From Bellilinea caldifistulae (GTDB lineage Bacteria > Chloroflexota > Anaerolineae > Anaerolineales > Anaerolineaceae): a stretch of DNA of 32,000 bases. Below, one piece after another: positions 1-32,000 of the stretch. The stretch covers positions 30,001-62,000 of the forward strand of contig NZ_LGHJ01000020.1 of assembly GCF_001306055.1 (NCBI RefSeq). Direction: 5' to 3'. The notes beneath the pieces were generated by a model. The model did no database searches. It saw only the letters and a program-made list of their open reading frames with translations, and had not been told where the DNA came from. The position numbers and the translations under genes are program-made. Position 1 is the stretch's first letter, and each line of letters opens with the position of its first letter.

Positions 1-2476
1 CCTCACCTGGGGTGAGATTGTGGATGAATTAAACTCGCTGCGTTGGCTGGACATGGGGCAAAGTAGCGGGGAAGAACCCCTGCCACTGGCGGAGTCTTTC
101 CAACCCGGTCCGCGTTATGGCGGCCGGTTGAAGCCCTTTTTCGAATACCTCAAAAATCTTTGCAACTTGAAGCAGCCGGTGGTGGTCGTTTCTCGGCAGG
201 TCTCCCGTCTGAAAGCCCTGTGGCGGGAGCAGGGGTGTGAACCCGGGCAGCCCGAGTTTAAAGAAGGCTCTCTCAGTGAGGGCTGGACGCTGATTCTTTC
301 CCCGGAAAAACGTTTTCACCTCTTGACCGACAGTGAAATTTTTGGATGGGAGCGGCCTCAACCCCGCACGCGTGCCAGGCCAATTGCCGAAGCCCCGGAA
401 GCGTCCTATGCCGATTTCAAACCCGGTTCGTGGGTTGTCCACGTGGATTACGGCATTGGCAAGTTCATCGGTCTGGTACAGCGCGTGCTGGATGGGGTTG
501 AGCGTGAATTCCTGTGTGTGGAATACGCCGACGGTGACCAGTTATTTGTACCCGTCCATCAGGCGGACCGCCTGAGCCGCTACATCGGCCCGAGCGGTGA
601 AGCACCCAGTCCAACCCGGCTTGGAAGCAACGAATGGCAAAACACCCGCCAGCGAGTGCGTGAGGCTGTGCTGGAGGTGGCTCAAGATCTCCTCGATCTT
701 TACTCACGCCGTCAGGTCGCCCAGGGTTTTGCTTTCAGTCCCGATACTCCGTGGCAGCAGGATTTGGAGGCCTCCTTTCCGTATGTCGAAACGGAGGATC
801 AACTCAAAGCCATTGCCGAAGTCAAGCGCGACATGGAGCGCCCGCGCCCGATGGATCGGCTGTTGTGCGGTGATGTGGGTTACGGTAAAACCGAAGTCGC
901 TTTGCGGGCGGCTTTCAAAGCCGTGATGGACGGTAAACAGGTTGCCATGCTGGTACCGACAACGGTTTTGGCTCAGCAACACTACGAGACGTTCCGTCAG
1001 CGTCTGGCGGCTTTTCCGGTAGAGGTGGAGATGCTTTCGCGTTTTCGTTCTCCGCGCGAGCAGGATGAAATCATCCTGCGCACGGCCTTAGGGGAAGTGG
1101 ATATCTTGATCGGCACTCATCGCCTGCTTCAACCGGATGTGACTTTCAAAGACCTTGGGTTGTTAATCATTGACGAAGAACAGCGCTTTGGGGTTACTCA
1201 CAAGGAGCATTTCAAAAAGTTTCGTACCGAGGTGGATGTGCTGACCCTTACGGCTACCCCAATACCCAGGACACTGTACATGGCGTTGACCGGTGTTCGT
1301 GATATTTCGGTGATCAATACCCCGCCGGCGGAGCGTTTGCCGATCATCACTCATATTGGCCCGTATTCGCCCCGTCTGGTGCGACAGGCGATTGTGCGCG
1401 AACTGGAACGTGGCGGGCAGGTCTTTTTTGTCCATAATCGTGTTCAGACCATCCGCGCCATGGAACGGCATTTACACAATCTGGTGCCGGAAGCGCGGAT
1501 TGGAGTGGCCCATGGTCAGATGAACGAGGGCGAACTGGCGCAGGTGATGCACGATTTTACCCGCGGCAAAATTGATGTACTGCTGTGTACCTCGATTATC
1601 GAATCGGGTCTGGATATACCCAATGCCAACACCTTGATTGTGGATCGCGGTGACACTTTTGGTCTGGCACAGCTGTACCAGTTACGCGGGCGGGTGGGAC
1701 GCGGAGCTCAGCGTGCGTATGCTTATTTCTTCCGCCACCGGCGTAAACCACCCACGCCGGAGGGGCAGGAACGCCTGGAAGTGATTGCCGAGAACACTCA
1801 ACTGGGAGCCGGTTACTCGATTGCCATGCGGGATCTGGAGATGCGCGGGGCTGGTGAACTGCTGGGAACGAGGCAGCATGGTTATATTGCCAGTGTGGGT
1901 TTTCACCTCTATACCCGCTTGCTGGCGCAGGCAGTTAGGCAGTTGAAGCAGGTGAGCGGTTTAGAAACGGCCGAACTGCCGGTTGATGAGATGCGGGAAT
2001 TAAGTATGGCGGTGGCGGTTGAATTACCTCTGGCGAGTGGTATTCCTTCCTCATATGTGCCGGATCAACAAATCCGCCTGAACCTGTACCGCCGGATTGC
2101 GGATGTCAAAGACCTTGCCGAGCTGGATGCGCTGAGCCTTGAGTTTGAAGATCGTTTTGGCGCTTTGCCGGAGATGGTGCGGAATTTGTTTTATCAGATG
2201 AAAGTCAAATTGATGGCTCAGGAAGCCGGTTTGGTTTCGGTGGCTGTGGAAAATGATCAAATTGTCTTCCGTTTTCCTCCGTTGCCGGAGAATGTAGAAG
2301 CCCGCAATCTACCGCCGATTGGCACAATCGCGCGAGCCGGCAAGAATGCCTATCGCCTGCCGTTCAACCGCGGAGATCCACACTGGCAGGAGACCGTGCT
2401 GGAAACGATTGCTGCTATTCAATCGGTTTTACGCGAGAGCAGGATAGAACCCACCGGTGTAAAAGAAAATATCTAG
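1..2476 (+). CDS. mfd: Transcription-repair coupling factor Mfd, 5' partial. The frame is open to the window start, and roughly the N-terminal UvrB-homology third is missing.
   Basis: It has the CarD/TRCF RNAP-interaction motif WVVHVDYGIGKFIGL. Superfamily-2 helicase motifs are present: GDVGYGKTEVA (I), IIDEEQRFG (II) and QLRGRVGRG (VI). A C-terminal TRCF domain follows. The reading frame has no stop between nt 2 and the listed GTG at 20. Confidence 0.95.
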   Translation, partial: LTWGEIVDELNSLRWLDMGQSSGEEPLPLAESFQPGPRYGGRLKPFFEYLKNLCNLKQPVVVVSRQVSRLKALWREQGCEPGQPEFKEGSLSEGWTLILSPEKRFHLLTDSEIFGWERPQPRTRARPIAEAPEASYADFKPGSWVVHVDYGIGKFIGLVQRVLDGVEREFLCVEYADGDQLFVPVHQADRLSRYIGPSGEAPSPTRLGSNEWQNTRQRVREAVLEVAQDLLDLYSRRQVAQGFAFSPDTPWQQDLEASFPYVETEDQLKAIAEVKRDMERPRPMDRLLCGDVGYGKTEVALRAAFKAVMDGKQVAMLVPTTVLAQQHYETFRQRLAAFPVEVEMLSRFRSPREQDEIILRTALGEVDILIGTHRLLQPDVTFKDLGLLIIDEEQRFGVTHKEHFKKFRTEVDVLTLTATPIPRTLYMALTGVRDISVINTPPAERLPIITHIGPYSPRLVRQAIVRELERGGQVFFVHNRVQTIRAMERHLHNLVPEARIGVAHGQMNEGELAQVMHDFTRGKIDVLLCTSIIESGLDIPNANTLIVDRGDTFGLAQLYQLRGRVGRGAQRAYAYFFRHRRKPPTPEGQERLEVIAENTQLGAGYSIAMRDLEMRGAGELLGTRQHGYIASVGFHLYTRLLAQAVRQLKQVSGLETAELPVDEMRELSMAVAVELPLASGIPSSYVPDQQIRLNLYRRIADVKDLAELDALSLEFEDRFGALPEMVRNLFYQMKVKLMAQEAGLVSVAVENDQIVFRFPPLPENVEARNLPPIGTIARAGKNAYRLPFNRGDPHWQETVLETIAAIQSVLRESRIEPTGVKENI

Positions 2477-2501
2477 AAATAATGTTCTTTTTAATAAAGC
2501 A

Positions 2502-2510
2502 TGTTACAAT
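2502..2510 (+). promoter_or_regulatory. Possible extended -10 promoter element (TGtTACAAT) upstream of uvrB
   Basis: TG at 2502-2503, one spacer nt, then TACAAT at 2505-2510 in the 75-nt AT-rich mfd-uvrB spacer. No good -35 hexamer is present. Confidence 0.25.
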
Positions 2511-2551
2511 CGAAAGGTTGAGCGGCTCACGGATGTAGAGAGGATAATCTT

Positions 2552-4600
2552 ATGGAGTTCAAACTGCAAGCACCTTATATTCCGACCGGCGACCAGCCGG
2601 AAGCCATCCGTCAACTGGTTGAAGGGGTGCGCAAAGGATATCGTCATCAGGTGCTGTTAGGTGCGACCGGTACCGGCAAGACATTTTCGATGGCCAATGT
2701 GATTCAAGAACTTCAAATGCCGGCGCTGGTGATGGCGCACAATAAGACTCTGGCAGCGCAGTTGTACGCTGAATTTAAGGAGTTCTTTCCCGAAAACGCT
2801 GTGGAGTACTTTGTCAGTTATTACGATTATTACCAACCAGAGGCTTATGTTCCTCAGCACGATTTATACATCGAAAAAGAAACCGAAATCAACGAGGAAA
2901 TAGAGCGTTTACGGCTTGCGGCTACTACCGCTTTGATGACCCGCCGGGATGTGATCATTGTGGCTTCGGTTTCCTGCATTTATGGTTTGGGCAGTCCGGA
3001 GGAATTTGGGAAGGGGCAGATTCAGCTGGAAGTCGGAAAAATTTATCGGCGGAATGCCTTGCTGCGTCAGCTGGTTGAGATTCAGTATCAACGCAACGAT
3101 CTGGAATTGCGCGGGGGGACTTTTCGGGTAAGGGGGGATACGCTGGAGGTCTTTCCGGCTTATGAGGATCGCAAGGTGATTCGGATCGCCTTCTTTGGCG
3201 ATGAAGTTGAACGGATTCAGGTGGTCAATTCTCTGACTGGTGAACTGCTTTCTCAACCGGATTCGATCGTCATCTTTCCTGCCAAACATTACATCACCGG
3301 TGAAGAACGATTGAAAATTGCCATCCAGAATATCGAGGCCGAGTTGGAAGAACGGCTGGCTTACTTCCGGAAGAACAATCAATTTCTGGAAGCACAGCGG
3401 TTAGAACAACGAACCCGGTATGACCTTGAAATGTTGCGCGAAGCGGGTTACTGTTCCGGCATTGAAAACTACTCCCGTCATCTGGATCAACGCCCGCCGG
3501 GTTCGCCACCTTGGACGCTGATTGACTACCTGCCGAGTGAATACCTGTTAATTATTGATGAATCCCACATGACCATTCCGCAGATCCGCGGCATGTATAA
3601 CGGTGACCGTTCGCGCAAGGAAACGCTGGTAGAGTTCGGCTTCCGTCTGCCTTCAGCGCTGGATAACCGGCCATTGAAGTTTGATGAGTTTGAAGAACAC
3701 ATGGGTTATACCATTTATACTTCAGCCACACCCGGCCCTTATGAAATGGCACGCGCCGAGCAGGTAGTCGAGCAGATCATCCGTCCGACTGGGCTGGTTG
3801 ATCCGGAGGTGGAAGTGCGTCCGACTCGCGGACAGGTGGATGACCTGGTCAAGGAAATCCGCAAGCGGGTTGAGGTGGGAGAACGGGTGCTGGTGACAAC
3901 CCTTACCAAGCGCATGGCAGAAGACCTGTCCGACTACTTAATGGAGATGGGCATCAAAGTGCATTACCTGCACTCGGAGGTTGAAACGCTGGAGCGGGTT
4001 GGCATATTACGCGATTTACGGCGAGGTGTCTTCGATGTGGTAGTCGGCATCAATTTGCTGCGCGAAGGGCTGGATTTGCCGGAAGTATCCCTCGTTGCGA
4101 TAATCGATGCGGACAAAGAAGGCTTTTTGCGATCTTCCACTGCCTTGATTCAAACCATTGGACGGGCTGCCCGGCATGTCAATGGTCGGGTAATCATGTA
4201 TGCCGATACCATCACCGATTCAATGAAAACGGCGATTGACGAGACCAACCGCCGCCGTGCCAAACAAATCGCCTACAATCAGGCTCATGGCATTGAACCA
4301 GTCGGCATTGTCAAAGCCATTCATGATATTACCGAACGCATATCCGCCGGCGCCGGGGTTGCCGAGGGGCGGGGTGAATATCGAACCGGCGAAAAAGGTG
4401 GTTTTCTGCCGATGCCCGCCAATGAGTTGAAGCGTCTGATCAATGAGATGGAAAAACAAATGAAACAGGCTGCAAAAGACCTGGAGTTTGAAAAGGCAGC
4501 CGCCTTGAGAGATCAGATCTTTGAATTGCGGGCTTTACTGGCAGAGGAAAGCAACCTGCCCCCCTGGAAAAAAGCGCAATTGCTGGCAGGCGAAGATTAG
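2552..4600 (+). CDS. uvrB: Excinuclease ABC subunit B (UvrB)
   Basis: Walker [18 protein letters not shown] helicase motif II, a conserved [13 protein letters not shown] block, and a C-terminal UVR domain ([16 protein letters not shown]). A GAGAGG RBS precedes the ATG. Confidence 0.97.
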
Positions 4601-7854: not shown

Positions 7855-9102
7855 GTGAAAAATGTGAGTCGCTTCTACATACATAAAGTAAACCCAATTA
7901 TTCTCTGTCTGGTTGCGGTTTTAGTGTGGGGCTTGTCCGTTTCGCCGGCTGTCGTCCGTGCAGACGACTCGGTTCTGCCCGTGGTGGGCGAACCGGCAGC
8001 AGTGGATGAAACGAGTGAGCCGCACAACTCGATTCAGTTCAACGGCTGCGAACGCCAGAATTTTGAGCCGGTCAATGCGGAGTTTGAACAGCGGGTCGTA
8101 GAGCTGGTCAATCAAGAGCGTAACAAGCAAGATCTGCCTCCATTGAAATGGAATATAGACCTGGGTTATGCCGCTCGCTATCATGCCCGCGATATGGCGG
8201 AAGACGGGTACTTCAATCATGATTCCTACGATGGCGGACAAATGATCTGCAGCTGGAGCACGCGGATTGGAAAATTTTACAGCGGTTGGAGCAGCCTGGC
8301 AGAAAACATTGCAGCCGGTTATACCACACCGGAGAATGTGATCAGCGGCTGGATGAACTCCTCGGGTCATCGGGCTAACATCCTCAGTCCCAGCAACCGT
8401 GAAATTGGAGTGGGATACTGGTCGGGTGGCTCTTACCGTTATTACTGGGTGCAGGATTTCGGACGGCGTAGCTCGGTTTATCCGGTGGTGATTAACCGGG
8501 AGTATGCCAGGACCAGTTCGCCGGACGTAGAATTGTATATTTACGGACAGGGGGTGTGGACGGAAATGCGCCTGCGTAACGATGACGGGAATTGGAGCGA
8601 GTGGCGGCCGTTTCAGTCACGCCTTAACTGGCGCTTGAACCGGGTAAAGGGGATACGCACGGTAACGGTTGAATTGCGCAACGGGTCAGGTACAACCAGC
8701 AGTTGGGATACGATTGAATTGACCACGTCAGCTCCCGAATTGGAGGTACAACCGGCTTCTCTGACTTTCTTCTACGAAACCAGCACCGGACGACTGATCC
8801 CTCCCTCCGCTTCGGTCTTCATTCAAAACAGCGGCAATGATCAGGTGCTGAACTGGGTGGTGGAAAATATCAACGGGGATTGGTTCTCTCCTTCGGCATT
8901 GGCAGGCAGTACCCCGGCCAGCCTTGTGATTAGTCCGGTTCCCAATGGCGGGTCGTTTGTTCAGAATCAAATTTTGAGTGGCGGCTTGACCATCCGCATT
9001 ACGGATACTTTCCCGGTAGCGGGTTCACCAAGGCAGGTTGCGGTACAGGTGCTTGTGGTTGAGCGGGTACAGCAGGTTTTCTTGCCGATGGTGAGAAGAT
9101 AA
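7855..9102 (+). CDS. Secreted CAP/SCP (PR-1-like, YkwD-type) domain protein with a C-terminal beta-rich (Ig/BACON-like) extension
   Basis: N-terminal signal peptide (ILCLVAVLVWGLSVSPAVVRA/DD). CAP-domain signatures are present: ARYHARDMAEDGYFNHDS and GWMNSSGHRANIL. The start could be the GTG at 7855 or the GTG at 7864. Confidence 0.8.
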   Translation: MKNVSRFYIHKVNPIILCLVAVLVWGLSVSPAVVRADDSVLPVVGEPAAVDETSEPHNSIQFNGCERQNFEPVNAEFEQRVVELVNQERNKQDLPPLKWNIDLGYAARYHARDMAEDGYFNHDSYDGGQMICSWSTRIGKFYSGWSSLAENIAAGYTTPENVISGWMNSSGHRANILSPSNREIGVGYWSGGSYRYYWVQDFGRRSSVYPVVINREYARTSSPDVELYIYGQGVWTEMRLRNDDGNWSEWRPFQSRLNWRLNRVKGIRTVTVELRNGSGTTSSWDTIELTTSAPELEVQPASLTFFYETSTGRLIPPSASVFIQNSGNDQVLNWVVENINGDWFSPSALAGSTPASLVISPVPNGGSFVQNQILSGGLTIRITDTFPVAGSPRQVAVQVLVVERVQQVFLPMVRR

Positions 9103-9117
9103 GCAATAGATGCTCGA

Positions 9118-9771
9118 TCAGGTCAGGGCTGGCCTTGAAAGAGACTGCACCACCCGCGCGGCGGCTTTAACCTGAGCCGTGATCTGGTCAAACCGCCCAT
9201 TTTTGATCCATTGCCGTTTTACCAACCAGGAACCTCCTACAGCCAGAACCCGCTCGTGGGTCAGATAGCTCGACAGGTTATCGGTTTGGATGCCGCCGGT
9301 GGGTATAAAGCGAACGCTGGGGAATGGATCGGAAACCGCTTTGATGGCAGCAATTCCGCCCATTGTTTCAGCCGGAAAAAATTTGAACACTTCGATGCCC
9401 AGCCGCAGCCCTTGAAGAATTTCGTGGGGGGTGACGGCGCCGGGCAAAAACGGGATTCCCTCACTCAGTGCCCATTCAACGGCATCCTGCGGTAAGCCGG
9501 GGGAAACCAGAAAATCTGCCCCGGCTGAGGCTGCCTGTCTGGCCTGATCCAGAGTCAGAATTGTTCCTGCCCCCAGTGTAATGTTCGGATAAGCCCTGCG
9601 GATAGACTGAATGGCTTGCAGAGCAGCCGGTGTCCGCAGGGTGATTTCGACGAGCGGTAGCCCGGCTTCAATCAGGGTGCGGGCCAGCACTTCGGCACGG
9701 CTAGAGTCGTCAATTTCCACAACGGGAATGAGACCGAGGGAGTAGATGGTGCGATAGATCGGGTTGAGCAT
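9118..9771 (-). CDS. eda: 2-dehydro-3-deoxyphosphogluconate / 4-hydroxy-2-oxoglutarate aldolase (KDPG aldolase family)
   Basis: The family pattern is present: LVEITLRTPAALQAI, GAGTILT, FLVSPG, KFFPAE, PTGGI, VGGSWL. Confidence 0.85.
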   Translation of the reverse strand: MLNPIYRTIYSLGLIPVVEIDDSSRAEVLARTLIEAGLPLVEITLRTPAALQAIQSIRRAYPNITLGAGTILTLDQARQAASAGADFLVSPGLPQDAVEWALSEGIPFLPGAVTPHEILQGLRLGIEVFKFFPAETMGGIAAIKAVSDPFPSVRFIPTGGIQTDNLSSYLTHERVLAVGGSWLVKRQWIKNGRFDQITAQVKAAARVVQSLSRPALT

Positions 9772-9773
9772 CT

Positions 9774-10691
9774 CTAAAAATCCAGAAATCGGCTTGGGTT
9801 TTCCACTAATAGAGTGTTGATTGCGTATTCCTCTACCCCAAAACTTTTCAAGCGTGGGATAAAATCCAGGAGGATGTGACCGAGACCGAGTGTCAGGGGG
9901 TTGTGAACCTTCCAGGACGATTTGCGCGCCCGGTCACCAGAAAGCAGGATTTGCCGCAGATAGCCGGCTTCAATCAGGTCGCGGATCAGAATGGCGCGCT
10001 GATCATCCGACCAGTATTGTTCTTTACCAATCTGGTCGAATCCCAGAAAAACGCCTCGTTGAGCGAGCTGGAAGTAAATCTCGCGCGGTAAATTCCGGTC
10101 GAGGTGGCCGATGAGCAATTTTTGAGGAGAAACACCCGCCTCAAGCAGCAACTCGGCCTGTTCAAGGGCGAATGTTCCTGCTTCGGTATGGGTGCTGACC
10201 GGCGCGCCGGTTTTGCGGTGGGCAATACCGGCGGCTTGAATAACGCGCAGTTCTACATCGGCGGCATGATTCAGGCTGGTGGCGGCCTTGATTGCCCCGG
10301 CGCAGATGCCGGTTTCCCCAATTCCGACAGTGATTTCCTGTATCATTCGTTCGGCGATGTGTTCAGAAGATTGATTTTGTAAAAGTTCGGCAGAAAACTT
10401 TGCTTTGTGGTGACCCGTGACGGCGATAATATGAACACCGGTTGCCTGTGAAATTTGGGCGAGGTCAAGCGGTGAACGGCCGATTTCCTCAGTGGTCATT
10501 TCAACCAGCGCACCACCGCCAAGCGATTTGAAATAACGCAATTCGGCAACGGCTGCGGGAATTGAATCAAGACCGAGATCGGCATCTTCAAGCGCCATCG
10601 AATCGGGCGGGTACCAGAGAACATGCTCGTGGCAGGCAGTAATCCCCAATTGCCCGGCAGGGATAGAACCCAGTACAGTTTGAACTGCCAT
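9774..10691 (-). CDS. Phosphotriesterase-related (PTE/PHP, amidohydrolase cog1735) protein, a likely (phospho)sugar lactonase
   Basis: N-terminal metal-binding HxH (ITACHEHVLW), an internal STHTE motif, and GHLD and DR motifs typical of the PTE family. Confidence 0.8.
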   Translation of the reverse strand: MAVQTVLGSIPAGQLGITACHEHVLWYPPDSMALEDADLGLDSIPAAVAELRYFKSLGGGALVEMTTEEIGRSPLDLAQISQATGVHIIAVTGHHKAKFSAELLQNQSSEHIAERMIQEITVGIGETGICAGAIKAATSLNHAADVELRVIQAAGIAHRKTGAPVSTHTEAGTFALEQAELLLEAGVSPQKLLIGHLDRNLPREIYFQLAQRGVFLGFDQIGKEQYWSDDQRAILIRDLIEAGYLRQILLSGDRARKSSWKVHNPLTLGLGHILLDFIPRLKSFGVEEYAINTLLVENPSRFLDF

Positions 10692-18397: not shown

Positions 18398-20533
18398 ATG
18401 AACATGCAAAGAAAACCCCTCTTTACAATTCTCGGCCTCATCATGGTCATTTCCATGGTGCTGGCAGCCTGCAGTACACCGGCAACACCGACCACTGAGG
18501 TCCAGCCGACTCAGCCGCCACAAACCGGACAACAACCCACTCAACCCCCTGTTGAATCGAAAGGCCCTCCGTTCACGATTGGGATTTCGAATCCGTTCAT
18601 CAGCAGTGAGTATCGGACGCAGATGATTGCGGAGTTGATTGAAGTCAACAAAGAGTATATGGACAAAGGGCTGACGACGGAATTGGTGATCGAGAGTGCG
18701 GACACGGACGTAGCCGGTCAGATTCAGCAGTTGCAGAATCTGATGGCGAAGGGTGTGGATGCGATTCTGGTCAATCCGAGTGATGTCAATGGTCTGAATG
18801 CGACGCTGCAAGAAGCGGTGAGCAAGGGGATCATTGTGATCTCGGTGGATCAGGAGTTGAATGTACCGGGCGTGTACAACGTGGGGATTGATCAGAAGGA
18901 ATGGGCGAAGACGAGTGCCAAGTGGCTGGCCGAGAAATTGGGCGGCAAGGGCAACATCGTGCTGATCGAAGGTTTTCCCGGTCATCCGGCGAATGTAGCG
19001 CGGATGGAAGGGGTAGACGAGGTGCTGTCGCAATACCCGGACATCAAAGTGCTGGCGAAGGACACGGGGAAATGGGATGAAGCGACCGGGCAGCAGGTGA
19101 TGTCGAACTTCCTGGCGGCGTATCCGAATCTGGATGGGTACTGGACGCAGGACGGTATGGCGATTGGGGCCTTGCAGGCGGTGATAGCGGCCAACCCGGC
19201 GAAGTTCCCGGTGGGTGTTGGTGAAGGTCGCTGCCAGTTCCTGAAGTTGTGGGAAGAGGTGTTGAAGGATCGCCCGGACTTTGAGACGATTGCGGTGGCC
19301 AATCCGCCGGGTGTTTCACCGACCGGGTTGCGGATTGCGGTGAACATGCTGCTGGGCAAGCAGGTGGACAAGAGCAAGCTGGGCGGAGCGAATGGTTTGT
19401 CATTCGTCATTCCGGTGCCGATTGTGATCACCAAGGACAACCTGCAACAGGGATTGGACATCTGCAAGGACAAACCGGATGCCTACCTGCTGGACGGCAT
19501 CATGACCGATCAGGAAGTTCTGGATACCTTCTTCGTCAAGGAACAGGCCGCCACCCGCAAATTCACGATTGGGATTTCGAATCCGTTCATCAGCAGTGAG
19601 TATCGGACGCAGATGATTGCGGAGTTGATTGAAGTCAACAAAGAGTACATGGACAAAGGGCTGACGACGGAATTGGTGATCGAGAGTGCGGACACGGACG
19701 TAGCCGGTCAGATTCAGCAGTTGCAGAATCTGATGGCGAAGGGCGTGGATGCGATTCTGGTCAATCCGAGTGATGTCAATGGTCTGAACGCGACGCTGCA
19801 AGAAGCGGTGAGCAAGGGGATCATTGTGATCTCGGTGGATCAGGAGTTGAATGTACCGGGCGTGTACAACGTGGGGATTGATCAGAAGGAATGGGCGAAG
19901 ACGAGTGCCAAGTGGCTGGCCGAGAAATTGGGCGGCAAGGGCAACATCGTGCTGATCGAAGGTTTTCCCGGTCATCCGGCGAATGTAGCGCGGATGGAAG
20001 GGGTAGACGAGGTGCTGTCGCAATACCCGGACATCAAAGTGCTGGCGAAGGACACGGGGAAATGGGATGAAGCGACCGGGCAGCAGGTGATGTCGAACTT
20101 CCTGGCGGCGTATCCGAATCTGGATGGGTACTGGACGCAGGACGGTATGGCGATTGGGGCCTTGCAGGCGGTGATAGCGGCCAACCCGGCGAAGTTCCCG
20201 GTGGGTGTTGGTGAAGGTCGCTGCCAGTTCCTGAAGTTGTGGGAAGAGGTGTTGAAGGATCGCCCGGACTTTGAGACGATTGCGGTGGCCAATCCGCCGG
20301 GTGTTTCACCGACCGGGTTGCGGATTGCGGTGAACATGCTGCTGGGCAAGCAGGTGGACAAGAGCAAGCTGGGCGGAGCGAATGGTTTGTCATTCGTCAT
20401 TCCGGTGCCGATTGTGATCACCAAGGACAACCTGCAACAGGGATTGGACATCTGCAAGGACAAACCGGATGCCTACCTGCTGGACGGCATCATGACCGAT
20501 CAGGAAGTTCTGGATACCTTCTTCTTGAAATAA
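18398..20533 (+). CDS. Lipoprotein ABC-transporter sugar-binding protein (type I PBP, RbsB-like) containing two tandem, nearly identical complete binding domains
   Basis: Signal peptide with the lipobox LAAC, then a Pro/Thr/Gln-rich tether. A 320-aa PBP domain starting FTIGISNPFISSEY follows and is repeated after the 9-aa linker VKEQAATRK. The true start may be the second ATG at 18404, which has better spacing to AAGGAG. Confidence 0.85.
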   Translation: MNMQRKPLFTILGLIMVISMVLAACSTPATPTTEVQPTQPPQTGQQPTQPPVESKGPPFTIGISNPFISSEYRTQMIAELIEVNKEYMDKGLTTELVIESADTDVAGQIQQLQNLMAKGVDAILVNPSDVNGLNATLQEAVSKGIIVISVDQELNVPGVYNVGIDQKEWAKTSAKWLAEKLGGKGNIVLIEGFPGHPANVARMEGVDEVLSQYPDIKVLAKDTGKWDEATGQQVMSNFLAAYPNLDGYWTQDGMAIGALQAVIAANPAKFPVGVGEGRCQFLKLWEEVLKDRPDFETIAVANPPGVSPTGLRIAVNMLLGKQVDKSKLGGANGLSFVIPVPIVITKDNLQQGLDICKDKPDAYLLDGIMTDQEVLDTFFVKEQAATRKFTIGISNPFISSEYRTQMIAELIEVNKEYMDKGLTTELVIESADTDVAGQIQQLQNLMAKGVDAILVNPSDVNGLNATLQEAVSKGIIVISVDQELNVPGVYNVGIDQKEWAKTSAKWLAEKLGGKGNIVLIEGFPGHPANVARMEGVDEVLSQYPDIKVLAKDTGKWDEATGQQVMSNFLAAYPNLDGYWTQDGMAIGALQAVIAANPAKFPVGVGEGRCQFLKLWEEVLKDRPDFETIAVANPPGVSPTGLRIAVNMLLGKQVDKSKLGGANGLSFVIPVPIVITKDNLQQGLDICKDKPDAYLLDGIMTDQEVLDTFFLK
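18572..19533 (+). repeat. Tandem duplication, copy 1 (962 bp)
   Basis: By direct line-by-line comparison it is identical to 19562-20523 except at 18658, 18744 and 18799 (T here, C in copy 2). Confidence 0.95.
19562..20523 (+). repeat. Tandem duplication, copy 2 (962 bp; offset 990 bp = 330 codons, in frame)
   Basis: 959 of 962 positions are identical to copy 1. A unique 28-bp junction (19534-19561) separates the two copies. Confidence 0.95.
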
Positions 20534-28039: not shown

Positions 28040-29008
28040 ATGAAACGATATATCGGCTGTGATTTAGGCGGCACCAATCTGCGTGCTGCACTGGTAGATA
28101 TTGAAACCGGCACGGTTCTCTTTCAGCAAAGTGTGCCAACATTGGCGCGCGAAGGCCACGATGCGGTCATGCAGCGCATGGCGGATTTGTTTCTCACCAT
28201 GATTAAGGCTGCCGGTCTACAAACAGAGGATGTTGGTGGGATCGGAATCGGCGTGCCGGGTGTGCTTGACCTCGAAAAAGGGGAAACCCTGTTTTTGCCC
28301 AACCTGCCGGGAACCTGGCCGCATGTGCCGTTGCGGGATGTACTGTACCAGGCGACAGGATTGCCGGTTGCGCTGTTGAATGATGTCCGTTCGATCACTT
28401 TTGGGGAATGGCGTTTTGGGGCAGGGCAGGGAGTGGATACTGTAGCCGTTCTGGCAATCGGTACGGGGATTGGCGGCGGACTGGTGATCAATGGGCAGTT
28501 ACATCTGGGAATCGGGGGTACCGCAGGCGAATTGGGTCACATGGTGATTGATTTCAACGGGCCGCGCTGCGGCTGCGGCAATTACGGTTGTCTGGAAGCG
28601 TTTGCCTCTGGACCGGCGATTGCAGCTATGGGCATGAAAGCCGTGGCACAGGGTTTGACGACCAAAATTGGTGAGTTGTGCGGTTATGATTTGAACGCCA
28701 TCACACCGGCGTTGATTGCGGAAGCTGCTCTCCAAGGGGATGAAATCGCTCGCGAAATTTACCAGCAGGTCGGTTTTTATCTGGGAGTTGCGGCTTCCAG
28801 TTTGTGCGCATCGGTCAGTCCACGGCGGATCATTGTCACCGGCGGCGTTGCCAACGCTGGCCGGCTGCTGCTTGATCCAATGGAAAAGACGATGCGTGAG
28901 CGGGTGCATATCATGCCGGTGGAACAGGTGGAAATTGTACCCGGACAGTTAGGAGATCATGCCGGGGTGGTTGGGGCAGCCTGTTGGGCGGCTAACCGGC
29001 TTGGGTAG
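28040..29008 (+). CDS. ROK-family glucokinase (no HTH domain)
   Basis: N-terminal ATP-binding motif [10 protein letters not shown], the ROK motif [11 protein letters not shown], and the Zn motif [15 protein letters not shown]. At 322 aa it is the size of a kinase rather than a regulator. Confidence 0.88.
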
Positions 29009-29057
29009 TCGGCGAGGTCTTTACCCTTTCTGATTTATGTGCGGCTTATTTTCATTG

Positions 29058-29066
29058 TGATATAAT
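29058..29066 (+). promoter_or_regulatory. Possible extended -10 promoter (TGaTATAAT) for the tRNA gene
   Basis: TG at 29058-29059, one nt, then TATAAT at 29061-29066, 29 nt upstream of the tRNA 5' end. Confidence 0.4.
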
Positions 29067-29094
29067 TTGGCTGCAAGGCAGTCAAGTGCCGCCG

Positions 29095-29166
29095 GGGCCC
29101 GTAGCTCAGCGGCAGAGCGCGCGGCTCATAACCGCTTGGTCGAAGGTTCGAATCCTTCCGGGCCCA
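29095..29166 (+). tRNA. tRNA with anticodon CAT (elongator Met, or Ile2 read as lysidine-CAU); CCA is not encoded
   Basis: Cloverleaf folded by hand. Acceptor stem: GGGCCCG/CGGGCCC. D arm: GCTC-AGCGGCA-GAGC. Anticodon arm: CGCGG-CTCATAA-CCGCT, with a C:T mismatch at positions 27:43. Variable loop: TGGTC. T arm: GAAGG-TTCGAAT-CCTTC. Discriminator: A. Confidence 0.9.
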
Positions 29167-29196
29167 CAGAAATCGTGTTGTTCGCCAGCCCCATTG

Positions 29197-29226
29197 AGGG
29201 GTGGTATTCGCACCCCGCATTTTTTT
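29197..29226 (+). terminator. Rho-independent terminator after the tRNA
   Basis: Stem GGGGTG / CACCCC (29197-29202 / 29210-29215) with a 7-nt loop, followed by a run of 7 T (29219-29225). A second small hairpin, GGGGA-TAT-TCCCC (29230-29242), follows. Confidence 0.7.
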
Positions 29227-29397
29227 GTCGGGGGATATTCCCCTTTCTGGTGATAAACAACCACGACCTCACTGAGTTTTTTTGATGGATAAGTCTCTGG
29301 ATCTGATAAAAATTACTCCCCCGACTTAACCCCAAAATCACCGTTTTTCTCCCCTGCGGGGGGATGGAATCGGCACGCGTTCTGGCGTAACATCAGC

Positions 29398-29931
29398 ATG
29401 ATGATACTTTCAACGAGTGTTTCTGCCGGAATGTGTGTGCTGGTGTGCAGCCGCGAGAGAGTGGGGGATGCAGCCACTCATCTGCTGGTTGAACTGGCGC
29501 TGCGCGGTGAGGCGCTGGCAATAGACGGCGGTAACCGCTTGCAAGCTTACCCGCTGGCGCGCGCCTTGCGTGAACGCACTAACCGTTTCGACTTTTTCTG
29601 CCAGCGGGTACTGATCCGGCGGGCGTTTACTGCCTATCAGTTGCTAGCGCTGCTGGAAAGCCTCCCTCTCCTTACCTCCCCGCTGGTCATTCTGGATCCG
29701 TTAGCTTCTTTTTATGATGAAACGCTGCCGGTCGGGCAGGCGCGCTGGCTGGTGCAGCGCTGTCTCCAGGAGATCGAGCGGTTGAAAAGAGCGGCACCGG
29801 TTTTTCTTTTGCTGAGAACCTGTCCCTTGCCGCAGCGCCGTTTTTTGCAGGACATGGTCTGCCGGCAGGCGGATACGCTTTTCTACGAGCAGGAGGAAAT
29901 AACCTCCTTTGTTCAACCCGCGTTGTTTTGA
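29398..29931 (+). CDS. Small (177 aa) RecA/RadB/KaiC-fold-like protein with a degenerate P-loop (hypothetical)
   Basis: Its motifs occur in the order seen in RecA-superfamily cores. First is a beta-strand plus loop at the Walker-A position, but it reads SRERVGDAAT and lacks a GK[ST]. Next is IRRAFTAYQLLALLESL. Then comes a Walker-B-like hydrophobic strand ending in Asp (PLVILDPLASFYDE), followed by a helix and strand (LQEIERLKRAAPVFLLLR). No database search was possible. Confidence 0.5.
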   Translation: MMILSTSVSAGMCVLVCSRERVGDAATHLLVELALRGEALAIDGGNRLQAYPLARALRERTNRFDFFCQRVLIRRAFTAYQLLALLESLPLLTSPLVILDPLASFYDETLPVGQARWLVQRCLQEIERLKRAAPVFLLLRTCPLPQRRFLQDMVCRQADTLFYEQEEITSFVQPALF

Positions 29932-29943
29932 GAGGTCAAGCCA

Positions 29944-30228
29944 ATGGGGCGTACGGTTCCAACCATCACCCGTCAACTGAATGAAACCGAAGCCATGCTG
30001 CAAACCTTTCGGCGGACGTTGCGGCGCGGTGATCAGGCTTTGCTGGATGGTCTGCTGGCATCTGCGCATCGTCATCTGGCTGCTATTTCGGCAAGCGGTG
30101 CGTTGCTGCCTTTTGAAGCCGCCTTACTGGCCATGCTGCTCGAACAAGCCCGCCGGATTGCGGCGCTGGAGGAGGAAATCCGCATCTTTCAGGAGGAAGT
30201 GGTGCGGCTGCGCGATGGCAAGGGTTGA
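29944..30228 (+). CDS. Hypothetical 94-aa, Ala/Leu/Arg-rich, probably all-helical protein
   Basis: The ORF starts 12 nt after the preceding stop and its last 14 nt overlap the PolB start. Its C-terminus looks like a coiled coil (IAALEEEIRIFQEEVVRLR). No recognisable family motif was seen. Confidence 0.45.
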   Translation: MGRTVPTITRQLNETEAMLQTFRRTLRRGDQALLDGLLASAHRHLAAISASGALLPFEAALLAMLLEQARRIAALEEEIRIFQEEVVRLRDGKG

Positions 30229-32000
30229 AAAGACCGGCTGGCTGATGGATGTGTACACCCGTCCGAGCGGTGAACTGGTCTGCTGGTTGTTGAGCGAGGA
30301 CGGGCAGCGCTGGCTGCTGCCGATGGATTTTCCGGTTACTTTTTACGCGGCAGGCAGCTTGGCGGTGCTGCGGCAGGCCTGGCGCTTTTTGCGGGGGCGC
30401 GGAGTACAACTTTCCCGGCAGGTGCGCCGTGATCTGTTTCACGGAGAGCGGGTTGTGTTGTCCGCAACCTTGGATTTGCCCGGACGTCTGCCTGAGACCT
30501 ACCGCCGCCTGGCGCAGGCTTTTCCGGTATTGGATTACTACGATGCTGACCTGCCGCTCTCTGTGCGTTTTGTGGCTGGTACGCAAGTGCCGCTGCTGGG
30601 ACGCTGCCGCTTTGAAACCGACGGCCAGCGTTTGTTGGGATTGCAGCCGCTTGAGTCGGCTTGGGAGATGCAGCCCTCGCTGCCGCCCCTGCGGGTGATG
30701 GAAATCGAGTGTGACGCCGAGCCGGCGTTGCATCCCCCGCAGGAGATCGTCATTCGCTGCGACAGACGCTGCTATCGTTTTCCCTTGCAGCCCTTGCGTG
30801 CCTTTGTGGTCAACCTGCAGGCACTGCTGGGGACTTACGATCCGGACGTAATTCTGACCCGTTATGGCGATACCTGGCTGTTCCCGTTCTTAAGCGAACA
30901 TGCTCCGTCTTTCAACCCCAACCGCGACGAGCAGATGAAGGTTGAGTTTCGCCGCGAGCGCAGTTTGTTTGCTTATGGGCAGGTGCTTTACCGCGGGGCG
31001 CAAGCCCTGCTGTTTGGGCGCTGGCACATTGACCGTTGTAATGCCGCTTTGTTTGCCGAAATCGGGCTGACCGGTGCCCTGGAGATGGCACGGGTTACCG
31101 GTTTGGGGGTGCAGGAGGCGGTGCGCAAGTCACCGGGTGCAGGCATTACCGCCATGCAAATGCAGACTGCCCTGAGGGATGGAGTGCTGATCCCGGCGGT
31201 CAAACAGCAAGCGGAAGCTACCCGCACACTGGTTAGTCTGATTCGCTATGATCGGGGGGGGATGGTCTACCAGCCGCTGGTTGGTGTGCATCGTCATGTT
31301 GCCGAACTGGATTTTGCTTCAATGTACCCGGCGATCATGGTGCGTTATAACATCTCGCCGGAAACACTCTACCAGAGGGATGCGCCGGCCGGCTTAATTC
31401 CGCGCACGCTGCAACCCCTGCTGGTCAAGCGTCTGGCGCTCAAACATTGCCTGCATACCCTCGACCGGCGCGACAGCCGTGTAAGCGATTTGAAAGCCCG
31501 TCAGACGGCGCTCAAGTGGCTACTGGTGGTGTGTTTTGGATATCTGGGGTACAAAAATGCCCGGTTTGGGCGAGTGGAATCACACGAGGCGGTTACCGCC
31601 ATCAGCCGCGAGTTGCTGCTGCAGGCCAAGGAAAATGCTGAGGATATGGGATTCACCATCCTGCACATGTATGTGGACAGTTTGTTTGTAAAACGAGAGG
31701 ATACCCGGACTGAAGCGGATTTTCTGCCACTGGCAGAGAAAATTCAGGCAGAGACGGGTATTGGGGTGACCCTTGAAGGCGTATATCGCTGGCTGGTGTT
31801 TTTGCCGGCCTGCCGTGATCAACGCATTCCGGTGGCAAACCGTTATTTTGGGGTGTTTGAGGATGGTACGTTGAAGTATCGTGGCATTGCCCTGCGCCGT
31901 CATGATACCTGTCCGTATGTTGCCCAAACGCAGCTGGATATATTGAGTTGTCTGGCGCAGGCAGATGATCCGCGAGAGCAATGGAAAGAGGCATGGGGTC
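30215..32000 (+). CDS. Family-B DNA polymerase (archaeal/Pol II-like, RNA-primed type), 3' partial. It is divergent, with a degenerate exonuclease domain. It is not in the supplied ORF track because it has no stop within the window.
   Basis: My own translation from the ATG at 30215 gives 595 codons with no stop up to nt 32000. It aligns by eye to Pfu-type PolB. Matching blocks are DPDVILTRYGDTWLFPFL (Exo II region), GRWHIDRCN, GGMVYQPLVGVHRHVAELDFASMYPAIMVRYNISPETL (motif A), RQTALKWLLVVCFGYLGYKNARF (motif B), GFTILHMYVDSLFV (motif C) and NRYFGV...YRGIALRRHD (KxY region). Confidence 0.85.
   Translation, partial: MARVEKTGWLMDVYTRPSGELVCWLLSEDGQRWLLPMDFPVTFYAAGSLAVLRQAWRFLRGRGVQLSRQVRRDLFHGERVVLSATLDLPGRLPETYRRLAQAFPVLDYYDADLPLSVRFVAGTQVPLLGRCRFETDGQRLLGLQPLESAWEMQPSLPPLRVMEIECDAEPALHPPQEIVIRCDRRCYRFPLQPLRAFVVNLQALLGTYDPDVILTRYGDTWLFPFLSEHAPSFNPNRDEQMKVEFRRERSLFAYGQVLYRGAQALLFGRWHIDRCNAALFAEIGLTGALEMARVTGLGVQEAVRKSPGAGITAMQMQTALRDGVLIPAVKQQAEATRTLVSLIRYDRGGMVYQPLVGVHRHVAELDFASMYPAIMVRYNISPETLYQRDAPAGLIPRTLQPLLVKRLALKHCLHTLDRRDSRVSDLKARQTALKWLLVVCFGYLGYKNARFGRVESHEAVTAISRELLLQAKENAEDMGFTILHMYVDSLFVKREDTRTEADFLPLAEKIQAETGIGVTLEGVYRWLVFLPACRDQRIPVANRYFGVFEDGTLKYRGIALRRHDTCPYVAQTQLDILSCLAQADDPREQWKEAWG

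Follow-up and report, generated by a model that had tools for sequence, protein, structure and literature searches.

Described PolB2 operons

In archaea and bacteria, family-B DNA polymerases of the PolB2 group are encoded together with two small proteins, iRadA and PPB2. The association was first reported by Makarova et al. in 2014, including bacterial examples with lexA (PMC4104785). Further accounts of the operon were given by Kazlauskas et al. in 2020 (PMC7544198) and, under the name G2/PolB2, in PMC12926913. In 2025 Timinskas, Timinskas and Venclovas analysed 1823 operons and modelled a PolB2:iRadA:PPB2(3) 'mutasome' (PMC11791011). In this work we analyse a three-gene cassette in a 32,000-nucleotide (nt) stretch of Bellilinea caldifistulae DNA, referred to as the window, and find that it is already known: it is an iRadA-PPB2-PolB2 operon of type 1a, not a new kind of system.

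Several traits mark the family (PMC11791011). iRadA is a RadA homologue without the N-terminal domain and without the ATPase residues, and PPB2, formerly arCOG07300, is a small three-helix protein with a conserved N-terminal 'MGRT' arm. In most PolB2 proteins the first Asp of the DxD motif is substituted. A D(K/R) motif, predicted to contact the PPB2 arm, is preceded by a beta-alpha segment which, in the published models, binds iRadA in the manner of a Rad51 filament contact. Bacterial clamp-binding motifs are mostly found on iRadA, being frequent in the family and not universal, and it is rare for both iRadA and PolB2 to carry one. The sole order reported from bacteria, which the family entered by horizontal transfer from archaea, is iRadA-PPB2-PolB2. 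Neighbouring lexA, SRAP and DUF72 genes and damage induction are enriched features of the family that do not define it.

The only group member with genetics and biochemistry is Dpo2 of Sulfolobus islandicus and S. solfataricus, a damage-inducible extender in translesion synthesis. The S. islandicus enzyme is robustly active without proofreading, and it is efficient at extending mismatched or lesion-opposed termini (PMC8764526, PMC7390963). Dpo2 belongs to the same polymerase group as the polymerase studied here, and it shares with it the missing exonuclease, a non-canonical motif C and the company of iRadA and PPB2. It differs in being archaeal and in using PCNA, not the beta clamp; archaeal operon orders also vary.

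The operon in Bellilinea caldifistulae

The cassette consists of three open reading frames (ORF1 to ORF3) at 29398-32000 of the window, a segment that matches the B. caldifistulae sequence DF967971.1 base for base. We consider it very probable that this is the species' copy of the bacterial type-1a PolB2 operon, operating by the five-part working model set out below (transcription, pentamer, iRadA hold, PPB2 arm and clamp tether). The link to the literature rests on a near-identical Bellilinea sp. entry in the supplement of PMC11791011. When the window proteins were compared by BLASTP with the sequences printed there, ORF1 was 87% identical to the iRadA of that entry (GIV65310), ORF2 93% identical to its PPB2 (GIV65311) and ORF3 91% identical to its PolB2 (GIV65312, first 399 amino acids, aa). 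GIV65311 and GIV65312 also share 90% clusters with the window PPB2 and PolB2. Identity to archaeal members is low, about 26-29% to the Methanomethylicia operon (iRadA 29%, PPB2 29%, PolB2 26%); the Leptospirillum iRadA and PPB2 are 29% and 40% identical, the comparison set holding no PolB2 from this genus.

The operon shares with type 1a the gene order, the protein sizes, the MGRT arm, the D(K/R)GG motif, the substituted DxD, the dead exonuclease, the RadA core without Walker A and the clamp motif on iRadA, and nothing of substance sets it apart. Its local traits are that no lexA, SRAP or DUF72 gene is a neighbour and that iRadA begins 230 nt after a tRNA-Met gene. Many type-1a operons from Chloroflexota and Anaerolineae are present in the same supplement, with 'YVD' in the polymerase and iRadA tails such as QMELW and QLVLW (PMC11791011).

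An earlier, sequence-only reading of this DNA had not recognised the trio as a characterised operon, a view that is overturned by the description of 2014 (PMC4104785) and the 1823 operons of 2025 (PMC11791011). There is accordingly next to no chance that the cassette is an undescribed mutagenesis module, an independent B-family analogue of ImuA-ImuB-DnaE2. Such a module would fit with the scans of Pfam, NCBIfam and PADLOC, which gave nothing usable for ORF1 or ORF2, and with the NCBI records, where both are 'hypothetical protein' and the third gene is a 'DNA polymerase domain-containing protein'. It is refuted by the literature match, the 2025 study including a near-identical Bellilinea operon, and it also conflicts with the proteins themselves, as ORF2 has a match to DUF8156 and not to the Y-family ImuB, and ORF1 is RadA/Rad51-like. 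In UniProt the two small proteins are named a Rad51-like C-terminal domain protein (ORF1) and a DUF8156 protein (ORF2). Working from the letters alone, the earlier reading arrived at the right architecture, and in substance at the probable function, for a family whose database label is still 'hypothetical protein'. A PADLOC match of ORF1 to ZacB (E = 0.0019) and a match of PolB2 to HEase were judged spurious.

The metagenome-assembled genome (MAG) Bellilinea sp. KatS3mg046 holds two copies of the operon, GIV65310-12 and GIV65363-65, on two contigs of about 64 kb each. Their proteins (P0001/P0003 and P0130/P0131) are 87-99% identical to those of the window, and the two copies may reflect two strains binned together or a true duplication.

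Gene layout

Three packed same-strand ORFs had been described downstream of a tRNA(CAT) gene and its terminator, and every coordinate holds, for the tRNA, ORF1, ORF2, the PolB ATG and the HMYVDS motif (Table 1). The window has no tRNA gene besides this one. The PolB2 ATG lies inside ORF2, giving an overlap of 14 nt, and its frame stays open to the end of the window (595 codons). A Shine-Dalgarno sequence, GAGG, is found 8 nt 5' of the PPB2 ATG. In the source genome (DF967971.1 of GCA_001050215.2, our locus L015) the full PolB2 of 707 aa occupies 8272-10395 and the gene 3' of it is convergent; its product resembles acyl-CoA synthetases and carries CoA-binding and ATP-grasp domains. The cassette accordingly ends with PolB2 and comprises three genes and no more, which disposes of the earlier suggestion that a larger system might extend beyond the window.

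Table 1. Coordinates of features in and around the operon and in related loci
Feature	Coordinates	Strand	Basis or remark
tRNA-Met (anticodon CAT)	29095-29167	+	ARAGORN; Rfam RF00005, 69.6 bits; upstream neighbour, outside the operon
Terminator-like GC-rich hairpin and T-run downstream of the tRNA	29198-29226 (hairpin 29198-29216)	+	Consensus scan
Operator-like element GACTTAACCCCAAAATCACC	29323-29342	+	Alignment across 12 loci
Putative sigma-70-type promoter	29364-29393	+	-35-like ATGGAA 29364-29369 (relatives TTGnnn), 18-nt spacer, -10-like TAACAT 29388-29393
iRadA (ORF1), 177 aa	29398-29931	+	WP_145962535 / BECAL_01447
QPALF, iRadA C-terminus, beta-clamp-binding-like	29914-29928	+	Motif match
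PPB2 (ORF2), 94 aa	29944-30228	+	WP_061915103 / BECAL_01448; arCOG07300; Pfam DUF8156
PolB2 (ORF3), first 595 of 707 aa	30215-32000	+	WP_061915105 / BECAL_01449-equivalent GAP10283
Decayed 3'-5' exonuclease motifs	30698-30889	+	ExoI position MEIECDAE 30698-30721; ExoII TRYGDTWLFPF 30857-30889
GVLIPAVKQQAE...RYDRGG, predicted PolB2 beta-alpha and D(K/R) stretch	31181-31261	+	Ortholog conservation
Motif A, ELDFASMYP, catalytic Asp kept	31304-31330	+	5MDN alignment, orthologues
Motif C, HMYVDS, PolB2 residues 484-489	31664-31681	+	5MDN alignment
tRNA-operon interval in relatives	L002 1692-5187; L003 1208-5188; L004 3554-5177		
GerE-type regulator genes in relatives	L005 4482-4994; L006 3652-4086; L007 2179-2670; L008 4646-5071		
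GerE-type regulator genes in relatives, continued	L009 653-1180; L010 4403-4861; L014 4550-4999; L020-L022 4501-49xx		

The start of iRadA differs between public annotations, which give it 177 aa (WP_145962535), 166 aa (GAP10281) or 164 aa (KPL73643); the candidate starts in the window are 29398, 29401 and 29431. The long form, starting at 29398 or 29401, is favoured by an N-terminus that is conserved in distant homologues and by the position of the -10-like box. The terminator-like element behind the tRNA reads GGGGTGGTATTCGCACCCC followed by GCATTTTTTT and is a pattern match only, obtained with a consensus scan. Similar hairpins within iRadA and PolB2 are no commoner than in shuffled sequence and are therefore disregarded.

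The three proteins

ORF1 had been proposed to be a RecA-type core that has lost Walker A, and this can now be put more precisely as a RadA/Rad51-like core. With an alignment of 83 sequences AlphaFold2 gave a model with a predicted local distance difference test score (pLDDT) of 92.6 and a predicted template-modelling score (pTM) of 0.87; a single-sequence run (pLDDT 50) was unusable. The top Foldseek matches of the model are RadA, RAD51, DMC1 and RAD51 paralogues (E about 3e-8, TMq 0.6-0.74), and a 17-sequence ORF1 profile searched against the PDB finds RadA ATPase-core chains (E = 2.3e-5), then Rad51, RAD51D and DMC1. In the model beta1 begins as early as residue 13, which leaves no place for an N-terminal helical domain. 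Walker A, searched as GxxxxGK[ST] or GK[ST], occurs in 0 of the 83 iRadA homologues. By predicted structure and by sequence, iRadA is a RadA/Rad51 core that is catalytically inactive.

The C-terminal QPALF of iRadA is clamp-binding-like and makes a candidate beta-clamp-binding motif, so that at the level of motifs the family's clamp signature is present. Of the 83 homologues, 42 have QxxL[FLW] among their last 12 residues and 63 have L[FLW] among their last 5. PolB2 itself ends in KKQQYYLPLLK (L015 10360-10392, past the window), with RQFHLPLCR, RQLHLPVCR and RQFYLPLLR in relatives, and this tail may be a second clamp-binding-like motif (QxxLxL) besides QPALF.

The reading of ORF2 as a small helical protein is borne out. 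It begins MGRTVPTITRQ, with MGRT (29944-29955) invariant in 15 of 15 orthologues, and it has a Pfam match on record to PF26485 (DUF8156). BLASTP matches to published PPB2 proteins, together with PF26485, assign it to the family of alpha-helical proteins of about 90 aa with an N-terminal MGRT arm; judged by these sequence matches, PPB2 is the small alpha-helical partner of PolB2. Our own Pfam scan gave no match even at E <= 1, the scanned library apparently being older than PF26485.

ORF3 is a PolB with altered motifs, as had been read from its translation. It matches PF00136 (E = 2e-20), and its best PDB match is the PolB of P. calidifontis (5MDN, E = 2e-31), compared with 2e-5 for E. coli Pol II structures. 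Aligned with 5MDN, the ExoI residues DIE stand opposite ECD and the ExoII residues FD opposite WL, the region for ExoIII is shortened, and PolB2 relatives do not keep the acidic ExoI residues, having AP, SP or EP there. By this alignment PolB2 is an exonuclease-dead family-B polymerase. HMYVDS stands opposite YGDTDS, with Tyr in place of the first DxD Asp and the second Asp kept; YVD is found in 13 of 13 orthologues with an intact frame at motif C. The stretch LIPAVKQQAE...RYDRGG, which in the published models corresponds to the beta-alpha segment and the D(K/R) motif after it (PMC11791011), is present, and the orthologues keep (I/V)L(I/V)Px.KQQ.E and D(R/K)GG, the latter being DFGG in three loci.

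Conservation of the trio and its surroundings

A scan of one genome per species gave 14 loci with a PolB2 relative, all from Chloroflexota and mostly from Anaerolineae. The order iRadA-PPB2-PolB2 is kept in 14 of 14, with homologues of ORF1 and ORF2 found by tblastn directly upstream of the polymerase. Identity to the window proteins ranges over 47-93% for the polymerase, 44-86% for ORF2 and 28-83% for ORF1. Both PPB2 and PolB2 could be delimited in 13 loci, and in 10 of these the two genes share 8-14 nt. In comparisons with close relatives, ORF2 has a ratio of non-synonymous to synonymous polymorphism (pN/pS) of 0.15-0.24 and ORF1 one of 0.31-0.33, and at least 1772 proteins are found with a profile built from ORF1 relatives. 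ORF1 and ORF2 are genuine genes, not chance ORFs, because their order is kept in every locus, their pN/pS is low and the ORF1 family is large.

In two of the loci, both from MAGs (L013 and L014), the PolB2 frames are broken by apparent frameshifts that are probably assembly errors, and the garbled alignment stretches were left out.

It is very unlikely that the trio is the cargo of a mobile element or defence island integrated beside tRNA-Met. The operon does adjoin a tRNA gene, the segment between the two varies (230 nt against 1.6-4 kb), and the family's arrival in bacteria was itself by horizontal transfer (PMC11791011). Against this, no integrase, repeats or defence-family matches were found, and the Bellilinea clade keeps a ROK kinase gene, tRNA-Met, the operon and the convergent acyl-CoA synthetase-like gene in that order. 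This synteny indicates that the operon is stably chromosomal and that it is the DNA between tRNA and operon which varies.

The interval itself measures 230 nt in the window (29168-29397) and 1.6-4 kb in the close relatives L002-L004, and it looks like a variable insertion spot beside a tRNA. The additional DNA of L003 includes an esterase-like gene, together with ORFs that have no Pfam matches.

Working model

We propose the following working model. The three genes would be co-transcribed from a promoter directly upstream of iRadA, with PPB2 and PolB2 translationally coupled through their 14-nt overlap. The products are predicted to form a heteropentamer of one PolB2, one iRadA and a PPB2 trimer. 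In it iRadA, as an ATPase-dead RadA/Rad51 core, would be held by the PolB2 beta-alpha segment, which mimics the RadA/Rad51 polymerisation motif, and one MGRT arm of PPB2 would be inserted between PolB2 and iRadA, beside the DNA. The QPALF tail of iRadA may then tether the complex to the beta sliding clamp. By analogy with Dpo2, PolB2 would be a translesion polymerase without proofreading whose most likely task is to extend primer ends that are mismatched or lie opposite a lesion, and the outcome would be damage tolerance at the price of mutations. This analysis itself shows the anatomy of the genes, their homology, the fold of iRadA, the absence of Walker A and of the exonuclease residues, the diagnostic motifs and the conserved synteny; stoichiometry and interfaces are taken from AlphaFold models of an operon that is 87-93% identical (PMC11791011), and the translesion activity from Sulfolobus Dpo2.

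The published pentamer for GIV65312/65310/65311 (PolB2, iRadA and three PPB2) has a pLDDT of 84.8, a pTM of 0.84, an interface pTM (ipTM) of 0.79 and a ranking score of 0.80 (PMC11791011). For GIV65311 alone, file 2 of the supplement gives 88.4/78.7/90.9/56.3, which by analogy with Table 1 of that article, and under an unconfirmed header, would be the pLDDT of monomer, dimer, trimer and tetramer.

A different function was read into the family at the outset: PolB2 could be a pseudo-enzyme, and the complex a non-catalytic one that regulates replication or marks stalled forks, as originally proposed by Makarova et al. in 2014. The YVD in place of DxD, the altered motif B and the decayed exonuclease all agree with this, and inactivation with a regulatory role was proposed in PMC4104785. 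We nevertheless find it improbable, since the S. islandicus Dpo2 has IID for DxD and is yet a robust polymerase (PMC11791011), and PolB2 orthologues retain the Asp of motif A, the second Asp of motif C and the Lys of KxY.

A number of points do weigh against an active, damage-induced mutasome of type 1a, as favoured here. A literature search found no experimental work on any bacterial PolB2 complex. Motif B departs from the usual KxxxNSxYG and reads K..LVVCFGYLGY, which makes PolB2 activity an extrapolation from Sulfolobus. The ranking score of the published Bellilinea pentamer is in the lowest range (PMC11791011). By far the best NCBIfam model for PolB2, NF004416 (type B DNA-directed DNA polymerase, equivalog), gives 336.6 bits and its cutoff of 516 is not reached; full-length orthologues score 348-387 bits. 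As to induction, the 260 nt before iRadA hold no Cheo LexA box even when 1 mismatch is allowed, searches of the window for Cheo, E. coli and cyanobacterial LexA boxes were negative, and no lexA, SRAP or DUF72 gene is found among its scanned ORFs. Damage induction is therefore unsupported in the window.

The model of a multi-subunit mutasome has parallels in well-described systems. The E. coli Pol V mutasome (UmuD'2C-RecA) and yeast Pol zeta likewise combine, with clamp tethering, a translesion polymerase, an oligomeric small subunit that has an N-terminal arm and a member of the RecA/Rad51 family, which is bound by imitation of its filament interface. Their accessory subunits have no sequence homology to those of the window, and Pol V has a Y-family polymerase and works with the active cellular RecA, not with a dedicated dead paralogue. 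The sequence-only reading had drawn the parallel to ImuA-ImuB-DnaE2. The idea of an error-prone, multi-subunit translesion system does appear in the literature on the family; there, in the 2025 article, the comparison is made with Pol V and Pol zeta rather than with ImuA-ImuB-DnaE2 (PMC11791011). The ImuA-ImuB-DnaE2 system is, like the operon, a three-gene cassette, and it too has a RecA-superfamily protein whose ATPase is dead and an error-prone polymerase that does not proofread. It differs in its C-family DnaE2 and in its middle subunit, an inactive Y-family protein and not a 94-aa helical one. ImuA, moreover, is a descendant of bacterial RecA, while the matches of ORF1 are to the RadA/Rad51 proteins of archaea and eukaryotes. 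With a family-B polymerase and an ORF2 that has no Y-family domain, the trio does not belong to that system. E. coli Pol II (PolB group G1) is a further bacterial family-B polymerase with a role in the damage response. It has an intact DEDDy exonuclease and DTD and is encoded alone, whereas the window PolB2 has lost both motifs; PolB2 scores 24-53 bits against the three Pol II models (NF00442x), whose cutoffs are 570, 1103 and 1435, and so falls outside that group.

Bellilinea caldifistulae is a named species with a 3.7-Mb assembly, and it is available in culture. Its copy of the operon could, where the organism can be cultured, be used to test a model that has so far been computed, namely pentamer formation, tethering of iRadA to the beta clamp, mismatch extension and damage induction.

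Upstream element and regulation

What this work adds to the published description is confined to the regulatory layout of the locus, with an operator-like element, an apparently leaderless promoter and a GerE-type regulator in relatives. The 100 nt before iRadA can be aligned across 12 loci though their PolB2 proteins are only about 50% identical, and the conserved sequence is seen again in L020-L022. The conserved order is CTCACC, a near-palindrome, AAATCACC, a -35-like (A/C)GATTG or ATGGAA, a spacer of 17-18 nt and TAnnnT. In the window the near-palindrome is GACTTAACCCC (29323-29333); relatives have GGATTAAYCC, AGACTAGTCT or GGGGTTAGCCCC, followed by AAATCACC. The window contains a single copy of the element, where chance would predict 0, and we infer from its conservation that it is a putative operator. 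Rfam finds the tRNA alone in 28900-30300, so the conserved element is not a known RNA family.

The TAnnnT box ends 4-7 nt before the iRadA ATG, and nearly all related loci have such a box 6-7 nt ahead of the start codon. Such a short distance from a -10-like box to the ATG suggests that the iRadA mRNA is leaderless or has a very short leader. At the threshold used, a generic promoter scan did not call a sigma-70 site.

Immediately before iRadA, and on the same strand, 8 of the 14 loci have a gene for a GerE/LuxR helix-turn-helix protein of 141-175 aa whose N-terminal region is weakly RHH-like. A profile of this regulator finds at least 547 relatives. All 4 of 4 independently sampled members stand directly upstream of an iRadA homologue, and in 3 of the 4 DUF8156 and DNA_pol_B genes follow. 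In Table S1 of the 2025 study GerE occurs in 131 of 1823 neighbourhoods and LexA in 108 of 1823; its main-text passages on neighbours name orc1/cdc6, lexA, SRAP and DUF72, GerE not being among them (PMC11791011).

These observations bear on a variant of the favoured reading, in which the identity of the operon is the same but it lies outside the LexA/SOS regulon and a dedicated regulator acts at the conserved upstream element. This is a possibility that we would put clearly below an even chance. It draws on the missing Cheo box, on the conservation of the operator-like element and the promoter, on the GerE-type gene that accompanies iRadA both in the 8 loci and in the sampled family members, and on the higher rank of GerE than LexA in the neighbourhood table (PMC11791011). 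It is opposed by the window itself, where tblastn finds no gene for such a regulator in all 32 kb, and by the Promineifilaceae locus L012, which has a perfect LexA box instead. In a more specific form, we tentatively suggest that the PolB2 operon of Anaerolineae may be controlled by a small RHH-like and GerE/LuxR regulator at GGATTAAYCC ... AAATCACC, with a leaderless iRadA mRNA, and not by LexA. That B. caldifistulae keeps the operator and promoter while no regulator gene stands beside its operon would point either to a regulator acting in trans or to a derepressed, constitutive mutasome.

The LexA box of L012 is of the Cheo type and reads AGAACATCTGTTCT (about 1243-1256), 17 to 4 nt before the iRadA ATG at 1260, so that it overlaps the start region of that gene. 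No such box is present within 260 nt upstream in the window or in the remaining loci checked, L013 having one match with one mismatch about 155 nt upstream. In a further locus (L019 4501-5569) the GerE-type regulator and iRadA form a pair with no PPB2 or PolB2 within 4.5 kb and a convergent next gene; it is a regulator-iRadA module standing alone, or else an operon that has decayed.

Other features of the window

Genes for Mfd (TRCF; its N-terminus cut by the window start) and UvrB lie adjacent to each other at 20-4600, 25 kb from the operon; no evidence was found in this analysis that ties them to it.

A 711-aa periplasmic sugar-binding protein with two Peripla_BP_4 stretches is encoded at 18398-20533. 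Within this gene there is a pair of antisense ORFs of the same length, 990 nt apart (19044-19403 and 20034-20393), and their equal length and spacing suggest an internal tandem domain duplication in the Peripla_BP_4 gene.

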